A DNA stretch of 24,000 nt from Candidatus Heimdallarchaeota archaeon (GTDB taxonomy: Archaea > Asgardarchaeota > Heimdallarchaeia > JABLTI01): the NCBI GenBank assembly GCA_018238155.1, contig JABCTZ010000026.1, positions 1 through 24,000 on the forward strand. Direction: 5' to 3'. The position numbers were made by a program, and so were the translations under genes. Positions 8,435 through 21,003 of this stretch are shown in pieces (the first letter of the stretch is position 1; every line of letters starts with the position of its first letter). The notes under the pieces were generated by a model. That model had not been told where the DNA came from. It ran no database searches and saw only the letters and a program-made list of their open reading frames with translations.

Positions 8435-10360
8435 ATGAAATCGATAGAGAAGTTATGCGAGAAATATGCTATCCAGAATGCACTCGACCATGGAGAAGCA
8501 AAACTTGGTCCAGTGATGAGGGTAATCATGGCAACCCATGCGGAGCTCCGCAAAGAAGCCGATAAAGTAACAGAAATTCTCGAACAACAAATTGATTTCA
8601 TAAATTCACTTACAAAAGAGAAAATCGAAAGAATCGCTCGAGAGAAGTTCCCTGAAATTCTGAAAAAGGAAGAGGAACAAACCTCAACAAAGGATGTTGA
8701 TTTCATTCGAACGATAATAAATGAGGATCTTAAAACAAATAAATTCAAGGGACGAGTCCATACTAGATTTCCACCAGAACCAAATGGCTATTTGCACATC
8801 GGACATGCTAAATCAATAAATTTGAATTATGGATTAGCTGAAGAATACAAAGGAAAATTCAATCTTCGATTTGATGATACAAATCCAATGACTGAAGAAA
8901 TGGAGTATGTGAAAGGAATAATCGAAGATGTAAAATGGCTTGGAGCAGATTTCGAGGATAGATTACTCTATGCTTCTGATTATTTTGAGCAGTTCTATGA
9001 CTGGGCTGTACAGCTTATCAAGAAAGGATTAGCTTTTGTTGATGACTCAAGAACAGAAATGATACGTAAAGATAGAGGTTCATTAACCGAACCAGGAAAA
9101 AATAGTTCTTACAGAAATCGCTCCATTGAAGAAAATTTGAGACTATTTGAGGATATGAGAAAAGGGGAATATCCAGAAGGGGGCAAAGTATTACGTGCGA
9201 AAATCGATATGACACATCCCAACTTATTGATGCGTGATCCAATTATTTACCGAATTCTCCACAAAGAACACCACAATACCGGAGAAAAGTGGTGTATTTA
9301 TCCCACGTATGACTGGGCTCACGGATTGGAAGATTCCATAGAAGGGATAACCCACTCAATTTGCACACTAGAGTTTGAAGTTCACAGACAATTATACGAT
9401 TGGTTCCTTGAACAGTTAGATGATGAAAAAGGAAACCCTATATTTCATCCACAACAAATTGAATTTGCTCGATTGAATGTTTCAAACACAGTTCTTAGCA
9501 AACGAAAAATGCTTCGATTAGTGAAAGAAGGATTTGTTAATGGCTGGGATGATCCAAGAATGTTAACAATTGTTGGATTGAAACGCAGAGGAATTACTTC
9601 TGAGGCTATCAGCAAATTCTGTAAAGTCATTGGTGTAACAAAAAGAGACACTATAATAGACATTTCAGTTTTGAATAAATGTGTTAGAGATGATTTGAAC
9701 AAACAATGTTCAAGGGTTATGAGCGTATTAAAGCCTCTTAAATTAACTATCACAAATTACCCAGAGGATAAAGTAGAGGATATTACTATTCCAAATCATC
9801 CCAAAATTAAAACTATGGGCACAAGAAAAGTGAAATTTGCAAAAACACTATTTATCGAACGAGATGATTTCATGGAAAAACCAACTAAAGATTTCTTGAG
9901 GTTGACACCAGGTAGAGAAGTTCGATTGAAATATGCCTTTGTTGTGAAATGTGATAAGATCATCAAAGATAAAAAATCTGGTGAAGTAATTGAGCTTCAG
10001 TGCAGTTTTGACCCAAAATCAAAAAGTGGGCAACCAGGTGACGATAAGGCTTACAGAACTATTCATTGGATTGCTAAGAAAAATGCTATTCAAGCAGAAG
10101 TAAGATTGTATAACCAGCTGTTCACGAAAGTAAATCCACTAGATACTGAAGAAGGGAAAGATTTCACAGATTACATAAATCCCAATTCTCTCGAGATAGC
10201 AAAAGCCTATGTAGAACCTCATTTACAAAAGGCAAAGAAAGGAACGAGATATCAGTTTGAACGTTTGGGATTCTTCAATGTTGACCCTATTGATTCTAAG
10301 AAGAATGCTTTAGTGTTCAACCAAATAATACCATTACGAGACTCAAAACCGAAAAAATAG
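8435..10360 (+). CDS. glnS: Glutaminyl-tRNA synthetase with a ~95-aa N-terminal helical extension
   Basis: The core aligns by eye almost continuously with E. coli GlnRS as I remember it: FIRTIINEDL, VHTRFPPEPNGYLHIGHAKS, NLRFDDTNP, LRAKIDM..P...MRDP, HHNTGEKWCIYPTYDW, EGITHSICTLEF, LYDW, VLSKRK, GWDDPRM, YQFERLGFF, FNQIIPLRDS. The motifs THS.CTLEF and HH.TG.KWCIYP distinguish GlnRS from archaeal and eukaryotic GluRS. ATG start, TAG stop. Confidence 0.95.
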   Translation: MKSIEKLCEKYAIQNALDHGEAKLGPVMRVIMATHAELRKEADKVTEILEQQIDFINSLTKEKIERIAREKFPEILKKEEEQTSTKDVDFIRTIINEDLKTNKFKGRVHTRFPPEPNGYLHIGHAKSINLNYGLAEEYKGKFNLRFDDTNPMTEEMEYVKGIIEDVKWLGADFEDRLLYASDYFEQFYDWAVQLIKKGLAFVDDSRTEMIRKDRGSLTEPGKNSSYRNRSIEENLRLFEDMRKGEYPEGGKVLRAKIDMTHPNLLMRDPIIYRILHKEHHNTGEKWCIYPTYDWAHGLEDSIEGITHSICTLEFEVHRQLYDWFLEQLDDEKGNPIFHPQQIEFARLNVSNTVLSKRKMLRLVKEGFVNGWDDPRMLTIVGLKRRGITSEAISKFCKVIGVTKRDTIIDISVLNKCVRDDLNKQCSRVMSVLKPLKLTITNYPEDKVEDITIPNHPKIKTMGTRKVKFAKTLFIERDDFMEKPTKDFLRLTPGREVRLKYAFVVKCDKIIKDKKSGEVIELQCSFDPKSKSGQPGDDKAYRTIHWIAKKNAIQAEVRLYNQLFTKVNPLDTEEGKDFTDYINPNSLEIAKAYVEPHLQKAKKGTRYQFERLGFFNVDPIDSKKNALVFNQIIPLRDSKPKK

Positions 10361-10451: not shown

Positions 10452-10560
10452 AGACCCGTAGTCTAGTTCGGCCAAGGATTGGGGACTTTGAAAAAAGTCT
10501 CAATTCGTTGGGATTTTCAAGAATCCCTCGACGGGAGTTCAAATCTCCCCGGGTCTACCA
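10452..10560 (+). tRNA. tRNA-Gln (anticodon UUG) with a 31-nt intron at canonical position 37/38 (10492..10522); A1-U72, A73, CCA encoded
   Basis: Read: AGACCCG TA GTCT AGTTCGGCCAA GGAT T GGGGA CTTTGA[intron]A TCCCT CGAC GGGAG TTCAAAT CTCCC CGGGTCT A CCA. The intron region folds as a BHB-like motif: a 4-bp helix UUGA/UCAA, a 3-nt AAA bulge, and a 7-bp helix AAGUCUC/GGGAUUU with an 8-nt loop. A GAA/CU internal loop sits next to the anticodon stem. Confidence 0.85.
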
Positions 10561-12309: not shown

Positions 12310-12773
12310 AAAGAATCCTATGAAAACATTAGTTGATTTAATATGAGAAACACTTTTTGAAATGTATTGGCAAAAAAACTAATAAGAGAAAAATCAAGGT
12401 ATTTTGGTTAAAATCTTTCTCGTGGATTCTTAATAATTACAAATGAAAAGTAATTCACATTCAGTTAGATGCTTCTGTGTATCAACATTTGTTTATCTTA
12501 TCAAATCAAGCTTATATCTTTTATTTTCATCATTTTTATATTCAACTTCATATTTCTCAATTACATACAGAAAACCTTTTTTCCACTATATTCGCTTGTT
12601 GCTATATTACTACTCGTTTCAACAACAAAAAATCCAAGCATTGAAAGATTGGCTAAACTTTTCAATAGTTTCTTTATTTCTCTTTATTTCGAAAAAAAAC
12701 GATACTATTAATAAACAGCTAATATTCAGTTAAACTAATTTATCATTATTACAACTATTTGGATTTAATGAAT

Positions 12774-13757
12774 ATGAAAATCCTGCTAACTGGAGCATTT
12801 GGCAATGTTGGTACTAGCACTTTAAAGTACCTTCTAGAAAGAGAATATGAAATAATTTGTTTTGACAAACTCACTTTTGAAACACGTCAAGCTGCAAGAC
12901 GTTTCAAGAAAAGTGATATCAGAATCACTTGGTCAGACATCAGAAATAAAAAAGCTGTTGATAAAGCAGTTCAAGGTTTAGACGTAGTGATGCATTTTGC
13001 TGCAATTATCCCACCTAAAGCAAATCGGAACAATGAATATACAATGCAAGTTAATTTTGGTGGAACAAAAAACATTGTTGATGCTATTAAAGTACAAAAT
13101 GATCCGCCCAAGTTGATCTATACATCTTCTGTAGCCATTTATGGCGATGTTCGGAATAAAGACTCACCGATTGTCAAAGAAGATTTAGAACCCAATCCAA
13201 GCCCAGGAGATCATTATGCAGTAACAAAATTGAATGCAGAGAAATACATTAAGGAATCAGGAATAGAGTATACTATTTTCAGATTAAGCTATATTCCAAA
13301 TTCACAGAAAATCAAACTTACACCCTTAATGTTTAGGATGCCTTTAGATACTCCAGTAGAGTTTACCCATACAGAAGATACCGGTTTGGCTTTAGCAAAT
13401 GCTATTGAAACCGAGAAAGTATGGGGAAAAATCTTTAATTTGAGTGGAGGAGCAAAGTGTCGTTTCTACTATAAAGATTATTTAGAAAGAATGCTTCCAT
13501 TAATGGGTATAGAAATGCTACCTGATGCAGCTTTTGGTGATGACCCATTTCACTGTTGTTATTACGATACAACAGAACTTAACAAACTTTTACAATTTCA
13601 GAATCATACATTTGAAGATCTACTCCAAGAAATGGTTGCTAATGCTAAAAATCAACGACGATTAGCGACAATGTTCAAACCTTTCGTAAAACCAGTGTTA
13701 TTGGCTTTGTCTCCTTATTACAAGAAGAATATGCAAAAGAAGAAAAAAGAAGAGTAA
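12774..13757 (+). CDS. Extended short-chain dehydrogenase/reductase (NAD-dependent epimerase/dehydratase family), paralog 1
   Basis: MKILLTGAFGNVGTS (TGxxGxxG), SSVAIYGD, YAVTK (YxxxK). The start is chosen by alignment with the paralogs (MNVLITGAFG, MKILITGAFG). Alternatives are the ATG at 12768 or the TTG at 12759. TAA stop. Confidence 0.85.
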   Translation: MKILLTGAFGNVGTSTLKYLLEREYEIICFDKLTFETRQAARRFKKSDIRITWSDIRNKKAVDKAVQGLDVVMHFAAIIPPKANRNNEYTMQVNFGGTKNIVDAIKVQNDPPKLIYTSSVAIYGDVRNKDSPIVKEDLEPNPSPGDHYAVTKLNAEKYIKESGIEYTIFRLSYIPNSQKIKLTPLMFRMPLDTPVEFTHTEDTGLALANAIETEKVWGKIFNLSGGAKCRFYYKDYLERMLPLMGIEMLPDAAFGDDPFHCCYYDTTELNKLLQFQNHTFEDLLQEMVANAKNQRRLATMFKPFVKPVLLALSPYYKKNMQKKKKEE

Positions 13758-14722: not shown

Positions 14723-15694
14723 ATGAATGTATTAATAACAGGTGCCTTTGGAGTAATAGGTTCAAATTTACTGGAGACATTGGAAGATAAAGATTTTAAT
14801 GTACGGTGTTTTGATATCAAAACAAGAAAAACGAGAAAAAACGCTAGAAGATTTAGAAGAAAATTTGATATTGTATGGGGAGATATCCGTAACAAAGAGG
14901 ATGTTGCAAAAGCAGTTTCTGATCAAGATTTCATAATACATTTAGCTTATTTTTTACCTCCAATAAATAATAAAAACAGAATGGATGCAACTGAGGTGAA
15001 TATAACTGGAACAAAAAATATTATTGAATCAGCAAAAAATCAAACAACACCACCTAAACTTATTTTTGCATCTTCAGTTGCGATATATGGCGATACAAGG
15101 GGAAAACATCAACCAATCACAACAAATGAAAAACCAAATCCTGTTGATGATTATTCAAAACATAAAGTTGAATGTATGAATTTAATAAAACAATCAAATC
15201 TCACTTATTCAATCTATATTCTTGGAGTTATCCCACCAGTTAAGGAATTAATGTATGACGCAAAAATGTTTGATGTACCTATCAATACCAATATCGAATT
15301 ATTACATCCCTTTGATGTTGGTACAGCTTTTGTAAATGGTTTACTCAGTGAAAAAATATGGAATACAACATTACATATTGCAGGAGGATCAAGTTGTAGA
15401 TTGAATTATCGTAATTTTGTTAATTCAACTATGAAAGCAATGGGTATTGGGTCAATTCCTGATGAAGCTTTTGGTGGCAATATTTATCACTCCTCTTATC
15501 TGAGTTCTGAAGAAAGCAATGAAATACTAAATTATCAACATCACTCTTATGATGACATTATTTCAGATATGAGAAAATATAATAAACTCGTAATATCAAT
15601 TGCTAAATTACTCAGACCAATTATTAGAAGATTCATATTACATCAATCACCATATTATAAAATAAATCTTAGAAAGCAAGAGGGCAATGAATGA
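14723..15694 (+). CDS. Extended SDR (epimerase/dehydratase family), paralog 2
   Basis: MNVLITGAFGVIGSN, SSVAIYGD, YSKHK. Colinear with paralogs 1 and 3, including the C-terminal SPYYK tail. The TGA stop overlaps the next start. Confidence 0.9.
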   Translation: MNVLITGAFGVIGSNLLETLEDKDFNVRCFDIKTRKTRKNARRFRRKFDIVWGDIRNKEDVAKAVSDQDFIIHLAYFLPPINNKNRMDATEVNITGTKNIIESAKNQTTPPKLIFASSVAIYGDTRGKHQPITTNEKPNPVDDYSKHKVECMNLIKQSNLTYSIYILGVIPPVKELMYDAKMFDVPINTNIELLHPFDVGTAFVNGLLSEKIWNTTLHIAGGSSCRLNYRNFVNSTMKAMGIGSIPDEAFGGNIYHSSYLSSEESNEILNYQHHSYDDIISDMRKYNKLVISIAKLLRPIIRRFILHQSPYYKINLRKQEGNE

Positions 15695-16677
15695 AAATAT
15701 TAATTACTGGAGCTTTTGGCAGTTTAGGATCACATATCCTTGACTTACTAGTTAAATCAAAACATACTATAACGTGCTTTTCAACAAACAGTCGCAAATC
15801 AAAACAAGTTGCTAAAAAATATCGAAATCACATTAACGTTTACATTGGAGACATCCGAAATTTTGATGACATAGTTAAGGCAATTCAAGATCAAGACTTG
15901 GTTTTACATTTAGCAGCCATCGTTCCTCCTAAATTTAATTCTATTTCATTAAATTACTCTCGAGAGGTTAACGTTTGTGGCTCCGATAATATTGTAGAAG
16001 CCATTAAACAGTCAGATCAGAATACAAAAATAATTTTTCCATCCTCAGTTGCAGTCTTTGGTGATGTTAGAAAAAGAGGTGCATGCATTCTATCTCCAGA
16101 TGAACCTGTAAATCCAAACTCGGATGATATTTATGCCCAACAAAAAGTTTTAGCTGAAGAAATAATTTATAATTCATCCTTGCAATGGTCTATCTTTCGT
16201 TTTGGTTTTATGCCCAATGTTGACAGTCTAAAAATGGATCCGATGATGTTTGATGTTCCTCTCAATACAAATATGGAACTCATTCATTTGAAGGATGCAG
16301 CAATAGCTATTGTAAATGCTCTCGAGAGAGAGGAGATTTGGAATAAAATTTGGCATATTGCCGGAGGAGAAAGTTGTAGACTAACCTATAAAGAATTTAT
16401 TAACACGATGTTAACAACAATGGGTATTGGGAAATTACCCGAGGAAGCTTTTGGTAACAATGATTTTCATTGTGCTTTCATGGATACAGATGAAAGTCAA
16501 GAGCTCTTACAATACCAACGCTATTCATTTGAGGATATTATTTCTGAAATGAAAAGCAAAACTGGGGTAATAAGATTTTTTGCTAAATTGTTCAGACCTA
16601 TCGTAAAGAGCTATATATTGAATCAATCACGTTACTACAAAGAGTGGAGAAGAAACTCTAAAAAGAGAGATAGTTAA
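15691..16677 (+). CDS. Extended SDR (epimerase/dehydratase family), paralog 3
   Basis: MKILITGAFGSLGSH, SSVAVFGD, YAQQK. The ATG overlaps the stop of paralog 2 in ATGA (4-bp overlap), and AGAGGG lies 8 nt upstream. Confidence 0.9.
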   Translation: MKILITGAFGSLGSHILDLLVKSKHTITCFSTNSRKSKQVAKKYRNHINVYIGDIRNFDDIVKAIQDQDLVLHLAAIVPPKFNSISLNYSREVNVCGSDNIVEAIKQSDQNTKIIFPSSVAVFGDVRKRGACILSPDEPVNPNSDDIYAQQKVLAEEIIYNSSLQWSIFRFGFMPNVDSLKMDPMMFDVPLNTNMELIHLKDAAIAIVNALEREEIWNKIWHIAGGESCRLTYKEFINTMLTTMGIGKLPEEAFGNNDFHCAFMDTDESQELLQYQRYSFEDIISEMKSKTGVIRFFAKLFRPIVKSYILNQSRYYKEWRRNSKKRDS

Positions 16678-18383: not shown

Positions 18384-18986
18384 TTATCGACGATTATAAT
18401 TATTTCTAATTATACAACCATTACTTTCTAAATTACTCAAAATCATCTTCATAGATTTTCTTATGGTTGATCTAAAATCCATATGAATTTCTTCCAAAAG
18501 TTGTAGTTCTAATATTTCAAATGGTAAGGAATGAATACTATTAGATTGTAGAAATAAACGTCTCAGAATGGTTAAACTACCAATTGCACTTGGAAGCGAA
18601 TACAATTGATTATTATTTAGTCGGAGTTCTCTTAAATTCTCTAAATCGCCAATCCATTTCGGAATTTCAGCTAATTGATTAAAACTCATGTCTAAAATTG
18701 ATAATTTGGTCAATTTTTGAATTACATCAGGCACTCTTTTATAATCGTTATTTGCTAGATTTAAAACAATAATCTCTTTTAGTTTAACAAGCTCTTCTGG
18801 AAGATAATCTAAATACAAAGCATTTAGTGATAATGTAATAACATCACCTTCACTTTCAACAAAGTACACTTTTTTATTTGTTGGGAATTCCGTTTCAAGT
18901 GGGATCTCATGTCTTATTATCTCGCTTAAATTGATTAAAATTTGTAGTTGATCTTTTTTGAGAGGACTTGCCAATTTTATTTTCAT
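18384..18986 (-). CDS. Leucine-rich-repeat (LRR) protein, about 6 repeats
   Basis: Consecutive 23-aa units of the LxxLxLxxNxLxxLPxxI type: LKEIIVLNLANNDYKRVPDVIQK, LTKLSILDMSFNQLAEIPKWIGD, LENLRELRLNNNQLYSLPSAIGS, LTILRRLFLQSNSIHSLPFEILE. ATG start, TAA stop. Confidence 0.85.
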   Translation of the reverse strand: MKIKLASPLKKDQLQILINLSEIIRHEIPLETEFPTNKKVYFVESEGDVITLSLNALYLDYLPEELVKLKEIIVLNLANNDYKRVPDVIQKLTKLSILDMSFNQLAEIPKWIGDLENLRELRLNNNQLYSLPSAIGSLTILRRLFLQSNSIHSLPFEILELQLLEEIHMDFRSTIRKSMKMILSNLESNGCIIRNNYNRR

Positions 18987-19117: not shown

Positions 19118-19936
19118 CTAACTTTTAGAATCAACAATTAGTTTCTGTTCAAACCAAGTCTTCTTTCTGACTCTCTTACGGAACCAATCTGGGAGAAGCC
19201 ACCCAATATACATCATAATATAGGCAGTTAATAGTATCAAACTTCTAAACACCCATAGAGAGAAAGATAAAGCACCACTTTGTAGTTGTAAAGCGTAAAA
19301 AATACCACCCATCATTCCTCCTAGAAAGTAAACCAATAACCCATAGCCAATCATTTGTAATCCTCTTTTTCTAGTGATCTCATTTGTTCGTTTGGCTATA
19401 ATGAATGAACGAATGATAATTCTCAAAAAGATTATTGACTGAAGAACTACTTGAATAACTGTTAGTATTGGTACAAATGAAATATTCTGAAGATCAGCAG
19501 TAAAATCCGTTAAACGCGTTGCCCAAAGAAATCCAGGAATCAAAACATCAACTACAGTTATTGTTAGAAAAACTGCCCAAACTGCTACAATAAAGAAAAA
19601 AGTAACTAATTTAGTAACTTCAGCATCTTTTAGCAGATGTCTGCAAGAGAAAATGTACAAAAAAGATACTGCAGCTAATGCAGTTGTTGTTGCTATTGAA
19701 AGAAAAATTAAAGTAGCGTTATGCTCTTTCAATCCCAAAAGCTGTAATTGATAACTCATGGTAATGGAAAATCTAGAGATAAAAAAGACTATATAAATAA
19801 TCGCAAGCAAAAGTGTTCCTGTTGTTTGCTTTTTTCGGAAATTATTAAGAAGAGCAATAACCAATGTGAAAATAACCGAAGTAAGGATCCAAGAGACAAT
19901 TACATAAATCAATGAAATTGGATCAGCTATTACCAA
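19118..19936 (-). CDS. Seven-transmembrane protein, predicted N-out/C-in
   Basis: Seven hydrophobic stretches at approximately residues 6-30, 40-60, 75-97, 110-132, 151-178, 193-216 and 222-248. The K/R-rich segments (NNFRKKQ, CRHLLKDAEVTK, AKRTNEITRKRG, and tail DWFRKRVRKK) all fall on alternate loops (1, 3, 5) and the tail. The TTG start lies 1 nt after the GTPase stop and 9 nt after AAGGAGG. The next in-frame Met is residue 60, inside TM2. TAG stop. Confidence 0.85.
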   Translation of the reverse strand: MVIADPISLIYVIVSWILTSVIFTLVIALLNNFRKKQTTGTLLLAIIYIVFFISRFSITMSYQLQLLGLKEHNATLIFLSIATTTALAAVSFLYIFSCRHLLKDAEVTKLVTFFFIVAVWAVFLTITVVDVLIPGFLWATRLTDFTADLQNISFVPILTVIQVVLQSIIFLRIIIRSFIIAKRTNEITRKRGLQMIGYGLLVYFLGGMMGGIFYALQLQSGALSFSLWVFRSLILLTAYIMMYIGWLLPDWFRKRVRKKTWFEQKLIVDSKS

Positions 19937-19937
19937 A

Positions 19938-20474
19938 TCAGCTAACCTCCTTTAGAGATTCTACGAACCACTTGAAAGCTTCATAGATGTTTTCACCTGT
20001 CTTTGCAGAGGTTTCATAGCAGGCCCATTGATAATGTATATCAAGCAAGCCAAATTCTTTAATGAACCTATTTCGTTCTAAACCATCTTGTATATCACTT
20101 TTATGTAAAAGAACAAGTATTTTTATATCCTTGTGTAATTGAGATTTAAGCACATTATGAAAGACATTGTATGATTCTTCAAAACGCATTACATCAGTCT
20201 TATCCACTACATAGACAATACCATCAGATTTTTCGTTTACTTCTGACCAGAGCTGCCTAAAATCCTCTTGTCCACCCAAATCGAAAACATTTATCTCAAT
20301 TTTTCCGGAATGTATAGATTCACCTCTATTGATACCCATTGTTGGTTGTGTTTTAACGAATTCTCCAGTTTCCAAGAATTTAACAATGGTAGTTTTCCCG
20401 GCATTGTCTAAACCACAGATTGTGACATCAACTTCTCTGTTCTTGCTTTTAAAAAGATTAAATAAAAATGACAA
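19938..20474 (-). CDS. Arf/Sar-family small GTPase
   Basis: G1 is GLDNAGKTT (identical to the Sar1-type P-loop). Switch I is TQPTMGIN, G3/switch II is FDLGGQEDFRQLW, G4 is LLHKSD and G5 is ETSAKTG. The N-terminus MSFLFNLFKSK looks amphipathic. The TTG start follows GAAGGAGA by 9 nt. TGA stop. Confidence 0.9.
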   Translation of the reverse strand: MSFLFNLFKSKNREVDVTICGLDNAGKTTIVKFLETGEFVKTQPTMGINRGESIHSGKIEINVFDLGGQEDFRQLWSEVNEKSDGIVYVVDKTDVMRFEESYNVFHNVLKSQLHKDIKILVLLHKSDIQDGLERNRFIKEFGLLDIHYQWACYETSAKTGENIYEAFKWFVESLKEVS

Positions 20475-20493: not shown

Positions 20494-21003
20494 TTATCTC
20501 CAAAGATCATCAGAAAAGGCTTTTGATTCATCAACAACCTTTTTTTCCTTCTCATCAGAGAAGTCAATTGAGAGAGAAGTTGTGGAACTAATCTTAATGT
20601 TAATTCTACCTTTACTAAATCCATCATATAGATTTGGAAGTATTTCCTTCATAATCTCCATTCGAAGAAAAGCTTTCCCTTCAAGCTCATTTACAATCAC
20701 CGAGAAGAGCTTTCTTATTCCATCTATATCATAATTCATATTTGGAAAAATAGCAACTATAGTTCCGATGTTATCTCTCCCTTTCTCTTGAGGGAGCTTA
20801 AAAACGTAACTTGAATAATAGAAATTACCAATACCTGCAGAAGAAAAATCGCCTGATTTTGCTCCCATTGGCATGCTTTTATAGGTTATCTCACTTAGAA
20901 CTTCATCTGGTAAAACTTTGGGATGAGTCTCAACAAGTTCTAATCCTTTTTTACCCATTTGAACTAAACATAAACTTAACGGTTTGATAATTACAACCAC
21001 CAT
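20494..21003 (-). CDS. Longin/roadblock-like small protein (169 aa)
   Basis: ATG start about 42 nt downstream of a TCTTTATATTGG TATA-like box. Sequence pattern LSLCLVQMGKKGLELVETHPKVLPDEVLSEITYKSMPMG ... FYYSSYVFKLP ... IGTIVAIFPN ... IRKLFSVIVNEL gives a strand-strand-helix-strand-strand-strand-helix order. The G-P/L-E-L-x-x-x-x-P ... h-x-x-K/C-S/x-h-P signature is typical of longin-type domains. The fold assignment is inference. Confidence 0.75.
   Translation of the reverse strand: MVVVIIKPLSLCLVQMGKKGLELVETHPKVLPDEVLSEITYKSMPMGAKSGDFSSAGIGNFYYSSYVFKLPQEKGRDNIGTIVAIFPNMNYDIDGIRKLFSVIVNELEGKAFLRMEIMKEILPNLYDGFSKGRINIKISSTTSLSIDFSDEKEKKVVDESKAFSDDLWR

Follow-up and report, generated by a model that had tools for sequence, protein, structure and literature searches.

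A bacterial-type glutaminyl-tRNA synthetase with an archaeal glutamyl-tRNA synthetase-type N-terminal module in Heimdallarchaeia

The stretch of DNA analysed here (the window: 24,000 nucleotides, positions 1 to 24,000 of contig JABCTZ010000026.1, GenBank assembly GCA_018238155.1, Candidatus Heimdallarchaeota archaeon) encodes a chimeric glutaminyl-tRNA synthetase (GlnRS), in which a bacterial-type GlnRS core is preceded by a small helical module of the type that opens archaeal glutamyl-tRNA synthetase (GluRS), and which is followed on the same strand by a gene for tRNA-Gln. Judged from the sequence comparisons, this chimera is probably best explained as an enzyme predicted to glutaminylate the tRNA-Gln of its host directly, with a bacterial core transferred once and a GluRS-type module grafted once. 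Within this explanation we infer that the enzyme is active, what its module does, and in which direction and how often transfer took place.

Reviews up to 2022 state that all archaea lack GlnRS and give as reason that archaeal tRNA-Gln is incompatible with bacterial or eukaryotic GlnRS (PMC9499178, PMC8762117). A preprint mentions in passing a GlnRS gene beside cox genes in Hodarchaeales and Kariarchaeaceae (10.1101/2024.07.04.601786), and a transfer of GlnRS to Archaea has been asserted without detail (PMC8879553). No description of the N-terminal graft, of the change at Asp235 or of the linkage to tRNA-Gln was found in the literature searched. New here are the downstream tRNA-Gln gene, its linkage to the synthetase gene in 8 of 11 archaeal loci and the replacement of Asp235 by Val in company of tRNAs without G3:C70.

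The host is a Heimdall-group Asgard archaeon, in agreement with the archaeal origin assumed in an earlier reading of the window made from the sequence only. Contamination is excluded because Heimdall- and Asgard-labelled homologs, closed chromosomes, Asgard-type neighbouring genes and a 100% identical protein (P0001) in NCBI assembly GCA_018238125.1 all point to the same host. Full-length homologs of ~640 amino acids and 60-94% identity occur in metagenome-assembled genomes (MAGs) labelled Heimdallarchaeota, Heimdallarchaeaceae or Asgard; the fused gene was found in five archaeal genomes among the GTDB species representatives searched, two of them being closed chromosomes (Ca. Heimdallarchaeum aukensis and Ca. 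H. endolithica; CP084166, CP084167). The archaeal form, with a mean core identity of ~70% within the family, was recovered under Heimdall or Asgard labels only, one entry labelled 'Bathyarchaeia' excepted. The window has a guanine-plus-cytosine content of ~31%, and the neighbours of the GlnRS gene include an Arf-family GTPase (E 2e-41) and proteins with LRR and TPR repeats, while other archaeal loci of the family adjoin an actin homolog and Arf GTPases.

The synthetase core and its affiliation

The core (Table 1) comprises the catalytic Rossmann domain (Pfam tRNA-synt_1c, PF00749; residues 108-422, E 6.5e-103) and two E/Q beta-barrel anticodon-binding domains (PF03950 and PF20974; residues 425-526 and 542-617). 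A GlnRS-type core had been recognized in the sequence-only reading from the strings THSICTLEF, HHNTGEKWCIYP and FNQIIPLRDS, all of which are present in the translation of the open reading frame (ORF), and this assignment is borne out by the GlnRS equivalog hidden Markov models TIGR00440 (score 681.7, cut-off 425.8) and NF011291 (score 809.7, cut-off 681). The archaeal GluRS equivalog models TIGR00463 (386.3 against 401.75) and NF003169 (380.9 against 516), on the other hand, stayed below their cut-offs.

The residues expected of a functional GlnRS are in place. His121, His124 and Lys356, which represent the HIGH motif and the MSK-type lysine of the window protein, are conserved in 19 of 19 clade members. 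The equivalents of Cys229 and Gln255 (Cys310 and Gln341 in the window protein), which we take from engineering studies of E. coli GlnRS to be the positions discriminating glutamine from glutamate, are kept in 19 of 19 members of the archaeal clade, whereas archaeal GluRS has Arg at the first position (16/16) and Ile, Val or Tyr at the second. Equally, the equivalents of the anticodon readers Arg341, Arg402 and Gln517 are kept in all 19 members, and Tyr211 is conserved too. The core furthermore possesses the bacterial-type loop with Leu136 that unpairs the acceptor end as well as the loop recognizing G36; GluRS has neither, and the eukaryotic GlnRS sampled, those of human and yeast, either lack the unpairing loop or have a different one. 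A six-residue insertion, DDEKGN, is private to the archaeal clade, with no insertion at this position in 79 bacterial, three eukaryotic and 16 GluRS sequences (0/98 in all). By every sequence criterion tested the protein is a GlnRS, with glutaminylation itself a prediction.

Over 544 trimmed alignment columns, the archaeal clade shows a mean identity of 62% to bacterial and of 43% to eukaryotic GlnRS, bacterial and eukaryotic GlnRS are 45% identical, and archaeal GluRS is 31% identical to the archaeal GlnRS clade and to bacterial GlnRS alike. The whole core is common to the bacterial enzyme (E. coli GlnS, 1QTQ/1O0B; ~54% identity), and core identity reaches up to 64-69% with the enzymes of Bacteroidota, Omnitrophota and Desulfobacterota. 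Scores of the window protein against PDB chains follow the same order, with 573-635 bits for most bacterial GlnRS, 471 for Deinococcus, 444 for human, 388 for yeast and 213 for archaeal GluRS (3AII), and the E. coli enzyme scores about equally against other bacterial phyla and against the Heimdall protein. Furthermore, one single-residue indel common to the archaeal core and bacterial GlnRS was counted for a bacterial origin. What sets the Heimdall enzyme apart from bacterial GlnRS is the N-terminal module plus linker of ~88 residues, which no bacterial homolog has, the Val in place of Asp235, the private insertion and the archaeal host.

Neighbour-joining trees were computed from an alignment of 117 sequences and 543 columns; three distance corrections were applied, each with 200 bootstraps. 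The human and E. coli GlnRS references were confirmed against PDB end-to-end (1226.5 and 1300.8 bits) and those of yeast GlnRS (core and N-terminal domain) and B. subtilis YqeY residue-by-residue; the sequences of 8uk6, 4p2b and 5bnz were also used. The archaeal clade is supported at 0.94-1.00, and archaea together with bacteria are separated from eukaryotes together with GluRS at 0.84-0.99. A group that unites archaea with the bacteria other than Gammaproteobacteria and 4p2b is found at 0.76-0.98, monophyly of the bacteria receives 0.00-0.01 and a grouping of archaea with eukaryotes 0.00. The archaeal clade sits on a long stem within an unresolved bacterial radiation. On these sequence grounds, the core is best described as a derived bacterial-type GlnRS and not as a form in transition from GluRS to GlnRS.

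The N-terminal module and its fusion to the core

The N-terminus, with the string KYAIQNALDHGEAKLGPVMRVIMATHAELRKEADKV, forms a predicted four-helix module that is joined to the core by an acidic linker (Table 1). In the full-length AlphaFold2 model, built from a 54-sequence alignment (mean predicted local distance difference test score, pLDDT, 89.4), the GlnRS body is confidently predicted, the module helices 2-19, 24-34, 36-57 and 61-71 reach block means of 81-93, and residues 78-86 of the linker stay below 50; modelled alone, the module obtains 86.5 with block means of 85-96. Bacterial homologs start to align at about residue 75-90.

The likeness of this module to the N-terminus of archaeal GluRS, suspected from the letters of the sequence, withstood several independent comparisons. 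Residues 1-100 alone match positions 3-88 of NF003169 (E 3.7e-15) and also TIGR00463 (E 4e-8), and the N-terminus aligns to residues 3-79 of Methanothermobacter thermautotrophicus GluRS (3AII) with E 5.6e-7. A profile of 26 family N-termini, searched without word index against 1.84 billion representatives, retrieved 589 proteins at E<=1e-3; among 20 full-length matches that were looked up, all those with a named source are archaeal glutamate-tRNA ligases, from Thermoprotei, Nitrososphaerota, Sulfolobales, Heimdallarchaeota and Promethearchaeota. In a direct profile comparison by hhalign, GlnRS modules and archaeal GluRS modules align over 86 columns (99.9%, E 2.4e-33). The module is thus homologous end-to-end to that of the archaeal non-discriminating GluRS, occupies the same site before the Rossmann fold and is closed by the same 'PELL'-type motif, after which a linker follows in both enzymes. 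The body of archaeal GluRS, in contrast, is only ~31% identical, has Arg for Cys229 and is without the unpairing and G36 loops.

A further kinship with the GatB/YqeY tail, which had been proposed along with the GluRS likeness, did not find the same backing. The paper on 3AII describes residues 1-85 as a structurally disordered YQEY domain (PMC2978374). The Pfam GatB_Yqey and YqeY models matched none of 26 family members beyond scattered noise, a Foldseek search of the module against PDB gave no match, and hhalign against YqeY and GatE tails aligned a G-x-V-M...A-D motif weakly (P 0.005-0.03). Equally, comparison of the module with the tail of the eukaryotic GlnRS N-terminal domain gave 1-7 columns in hhalign (P 0.05-0.35) and no Pfam match, whereas the positive control, YqeY and GatE tails against eukaryotic tails, was detectable over 50 columns (P 9e-4).

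The modules of the GlnRS family share 32% identity (maximum 44%) with Heimdall and Asgard GluRS modules and 31% (maximum 47%) with those of other archaea, while GluRS modules share 35% among themselves. Dense sampling of Asgard GluRS as candidate donors gave no closer relative (32% versus 31%). Because the module is about as distant from GluRS modules as these are from one another, the graft would be old relative to the radiation of the clade.

The module is present in every clade member checked and is represented by ~46 distinct N-terminal variants, all in frame with the core. As all members checked carry the module, the core clade is monophyletic and the six-residue insertion is private to it, the sequences indicate a single acquisition and a single fusion. 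Several entries that might have been unfused GlnRS from before the fusion were rejected as such. P0077 is a truncated gene call according to its upstream DNA, the real ORF having 650 and not 565 amino acids; P0060 and P0061 begin inside the module tail of P0035 and are truncated calls by sequence; and P0004, P0016, P0022, P0037, P0047 and P0057-59 likewise start inside the module or the linker. Many public annotations of the family (L081 2746-4698 among these entries) take an internal Met as the start, so that the module is partly or wholly cut off. P0010 (832 amino acids, ENA), a close relative, contains stretches of the catalytic and of the first anticodon-binding domain twice each and was rejected as a C-terminally extended relative, the duplicated stretches probably being an artefact of assembly or of partial internal duplication.

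Another type of fusion was seen in P0062, P0078 and P0117 (1033-1101 amino acids), where a complete bacterial-type GluRS (catalytic domain and PF19269) at the N-terminus is fused to a complete GlnRS at the C-terminus; P0117, the sole one of the three with a named source, is from a candidate division WOR-3 bacterium. Unfused bacterial-type GlnRS were further encountered under the archaeal labels 'Thermoplasmata archaeon bin33' (L029; CP070751, 5.16 Mb) and 'Methanosarcinales archaeon' (P0109). In one tree L029 falls with Pirellulales, and several tRNA-Gln genes are located in its vicinity. Instead of further archaeal GlnRS lineages, L029 and P0109 probably represent records that are mislabelled or contaminated.

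The adjacent tRNA-Gln gene and the acceptor-stem reader

The stop codon of the GlnRS gene in the window is followed after 92 bp by a tRNA-Gln(UUG) gene, recognized by a targeted search with Rfam RF00005 (45.3 bits, gathering score 29, E 2e-8) and by ARAGORN with introns enabled, as tRNA-Gln(ttg) i(40,31). Default ARAGORN and a filtered Rfam scan of the whole window missed it because of its intron. In 8 of 11 independent archaeal loci, the synthetase gene is followed on its own strand by one or more tRNA-Gln genes (UUG and/or CUG), at <=150 bp in four of these loci, as compared with a tRNA-Gln nearby in 8 of 75 bacterial GlnRS loci (1.08 Mb). In the 196 kb covered by the archaeal loci, all predicted tRNAs are tRNA-Gln with the exception of one dubious call. 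The gene of the enzyme and the gene of its substrate form a conserved pair.

The acceptor end of the window tRNA is of archaeal type (A1:U72, G2:C71, A3:U70, A73). Among the archaeal linked tRNAs, three of which have introns of ~31 nucleotides, A1:U72 and G2:C71 occur in 8/8 and A73 in 7/8, while the 3:70 pair is A:U, U:A or C:G and never G3:C70. Bacterial linked tRNAs that could be well parsed have, in contrast, U1:A72, mostly G3:C70 and mostly G73. This difference is mirrored in the enzyme at the position of E. coli Asp235, which we take to be the minor-groove reader of the acceptor-stem pairs 2:71 and 3:70. The equivalent residue of the window protein, Val316, is Val in 17 of 19 members of the archaeal clade, whereas 79 bacterial-type sequences have Asp in 53 and Asn in 24 cases. 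In the few tRNAs available, residue 235 appears to track the 3:70 pair, with Asp accompanying G:C and Asn accompanying C:G in bacteria, and Val accompanying A:U, U:A and C:G in the archaeal clade.

The spacer between the synthetase stop codon and the tRNA holds an A/T-rich box that is conserved in the four tightly linked loci and is possibly an archaeal promoter element for the tRNA resembling the TATA box and the B recognition element (TATA/BRE-like). A hairpin in the spacer upstream of the tRNA was not supported, the region having no significant RNA structure (z = -0.96).

Table 1. Positions of the chimeric GlnRS, its parts and the linked tRNA-Gln genes (window coordinates unless a locus is named)
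Feature	Position	Strand	Remarks
Chimeric GlnRS ORF	8435..10360	+	ATG start, 641 amino acids plus stop, complete; ORF listing and equivalog models
Four-helix N-terminal module, residues 1-71 (about 1-75)	8435..8647	+	archaeal-GluRS-type homology
Acidic low-confidence linker, residues 72-88, ...FPEILKKEEEQTSTKDV	8648..8698	+	joins module to core
Bacterial-type GlnRS core, residues 89-641	8699..10357	+	Pfam, PDB scores, conserved residues, trees
Val316, equivalent of E. coli Asp235	9380..9382	+	acceptor-stem position
Clade-specific insertion DDEKGN, residues 329-334	9419..9436	+	in 19/19 archaeal sequences
A/T-rich box AAAAGAAATATTTAAAA	10384..10400	+	possible promoter element
tRNA-Gln(UUG) gene	10452..10560	+	31-nt intron after the anticodon (~10491-10521), encoded CCA
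Linked tRNA-Gln, L001	12018-12127
Linked tRNA-Gln, L088	11996-12071, 12929-13003
Linked tRNA-Gln, L090	11993-12067
Linked tRNA-Gln, L089	18184-18291
Linked tRNA-Gln, L003	13978-14049
Linked tRNA-Gln, L005	15409-15484

Further along the window, the Arf-family small GTPase (19938-20474, minus strand) is flanked by two ORFs on the same strand (19118-19936 and 20494-21003), neither of which matches Pfam. Together with the LRR protein at 18384-18986, it makes up surroundings typical of an Asgard 'eukaryotic signature' neighbourhood, and in locus L089 the GlnRS gene is followed at ~2 kb by a similar Arf gene. Three paralogous genes for NAD-dependent epimerases/dehydratases are located on the plus strand (12759-13757, 14723-15694 and 15691-16677), the second and third overlapping by 4 bp, while the first and second are separated by a gene in opposite orientation for a zinc-ribbon/'Sensor' protein.

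Origin of the chimera, rival explanations and meaning

In the explanation that we consider probable, the ancestor of the Heimdallarchaeia clade would have acquired a bacterial-type GlnRS once by horizontal transfer, and an archaeal GluRS-type module would have been grafted onto it once, through an acidic, flexible linker and prior to the radiation of the clade. The archaeal tRNA-Gln of the host, with A1:U72, A73 and no G3:C70, would have confronted the newcomer with a substrate lacking the bacterial identity set U1:A72, G73, G2:C71 and G3:C70. The module, derived from an enzyme whose native substrates are archaeal tRNA-Glu and tRNA-Gln, may add tRNA affinity and so offset the missing identity set, and the change from Asp235 to Val may relax the read-out of the 3:70 pair. 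A role of the module as affinity aid is suggested because of the analogy to the GatB-like N-terminal domain of yeast GlnRS and the YqeY-like C-terminal domain of Deinococcus GlnRS (PMC3333875). The enzyme of Deinococcus radiodurans (2HZ7, NF011291) is likewise a bacterial-type GlnRS with a small appended helical domain of tRNA-binding type; its appendage is, however, C-terminal and YqeY/GatB-like, whereas the Heimdall enzyme carries an archaeal GluRS-type one at its N-terminus. NF011291 is matched over model positions 7-556 of 769 only, and the Heimdall protein ends three residues past the GlnRS body. The NCBI name 'glutamine--tRNA ligase/YqeY domain fusion protein' is, by sequence, misleading for the Heimdall family because the C-terminal YqeY domain of the model is absent. 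Eukaryotic GlnRS (yeast Gln4, 3TL4/4H3S; human QARS1, 4YE6) also has an N-terminal helical domain appended to a GlnRS, reported to raise affinity for tRNA-Gln (PMC3333875), but this domain has ~185-260 residues in two subdomains, and the cores are ~43% identical to that of Heimdall.

The sequence-only reading had regarded the architecture as an evolutionary intermediate with a bearing on the origin of GlnRS. GlnRS would then have arisen from a module-bearing archaeal-type GluRS in the stem of Asgard archaea and eukaryotes, Heimdall archaea would have kept the module and the bacterial-type enzymes would descend from such an enzyme, passed from archaea to bacteria, after loss of the module. The module is truly of GluRS type and is as diverged as GluRS modules are across archaeal groups (32% versus 35%), which fits an old fusion; the archaeal clade has a long stem and no supported bacterial sister (0.24), and monophyly of the remaining bacteria is recovered at 0.07-0.28. 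We nevertheless consider this scenario unlikely. The core is no nearer to GluRS (31%) or eukaryotic GlnRS (43%) than the bacterial enzymes are (31% and 45%), it carries the derived bacterial-type unpairing loop, Gammaproteobacteria and 4p2b branch off before archaea and the rest of the bacteria part, and bacterial monophyly has next to no bootstrap support. Bacterial-type GlnRS is moreover found in many phyla while the archaeal form was recovered almost only under Heimdall and Asgard labels, and the module bears no detectable likeness to the tail of the eukaryotic N-terminal domain, although the positive control works. That reading had itself named a core branching inside bacterial GlnRS, an N-terminus without similarity to GluRS modules and a non-archaeal contig as outcomes that would speak against it; in the neighbour-joining trees the core does fall inside bacterial GlnRS, while the similarity to GluRS modules and the archaeal origin of the contig stand.

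A different or relaxed job of the enzyme can also be conceived, be it as a glutamate-activating tRNA-Gln enzyme feeding GatDE, as a paralog for a single isoacceptor or as a paralog outside translation. Points in its favour are that the archaeal-type GluRS family is common in Heimdall and Asgard MAGs and that the acceptor-stem reader is altered. With the discriminating positions of GlnRS type in 19/19 members (the first is Arg in archaeal GluRS), with GlnRS equivalog models passed and GluRS models failed, with genes for both the UUG and the CUG isoacceptor adjoining GlnRS genes and with all catalytic motifs intact in a well-conserved family, we judge this very improbable. An artefact, that is, a mis-binned or mis-assembled bacterial gene with an N-terminal likeness arisen by chance or by chimeric assembly, is effectively refuted. 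Most homologs do come from MAGs, and some archaeal-labelled entries are bacterial-type without the module (P0109, L029). However, two closed Heimdallarchaeum chromosomes carry the fused ORF, as do many independent contigs of up to 365 kb in Asgard contexts, both parts lie in one ORF with in-frame N-terminal variants, an archaeal-type intron-bearing tRNA-Gln follows closely downstream and the homology statistics are far beyond chance.

Several points weigh against a bacterial core joined to a GluRS-type affinity module. The phylogeny is distance-based only, with human and two fungi, all opisthokonts, as the three eukaryotic sequences and bacteria sampled mainly from the 75 nearest GTDB matches, plus three PDB sequences. 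The bacterial sister group, composed of Bacteroidota, Ignavibacteria and Omnitrophota, is weakly supported (0.24), and the nested position of the archaeal clade depends on the three outliers E. coli, P. aeruginosa and 4p2b, which long-branch attraction to the outgroup could displace. Equally, a neighbour-joining tree of 79 N-terminal columns resolves no donor of the module and recovers the GlnRS modules as monophyletic in 0.10 of replicates. The kinship of the module with YqeY and GatB tails is not confirmed by Pfam, Foldseek or hhalign, and the crystal of archaeal GluRS shows the module itself as disordered (PMC2978374). Finally, the covariation of residue 235 with the 3:70 pair is drawn from few tRNAs (bacterial loci L009, L037, L063, L015 and L026).

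A conserved GlnRS is nevertheless present throughout a whole Heimdallarchaeia clade, closed genomes included, despite the claim in reviews that archaea lack this enzyme. The graft from a GluRS of the host's own kind, the change from Asp235 to Val and the tight linkage to tRNA-Gln together suggest how the lineage may have crossed the barrier. They would explain how the barrier to GlnRS transfer into archaea (PMC9499178) was overcome. The Heimdall enzyme would furthermore be the third GlnRS, after those of eukaryotes and Deinococcus, to have independently recruited a small helical domain, which points to a general need for extra binding of tRNA-Gln. On the practical side, many database entries of the family are N-terminally truncated and named for a domain that they lack. 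For the archaeal group regarded as nearest to eukaryotes, a 'bacterialization' of translation components has been reported (bioRxiv 10.64898/2026.05.29.728689), and the Heimdall GlnRS adds to these components. In a weaker form of the reading that takes the fused architecture as ancestral, one independent of the direction of transfer, Heimdallarchaeia would be the first archaeal lineage to have exchanged the supposedly universal route via GluRS plus GatDE for direct glutaminylation.

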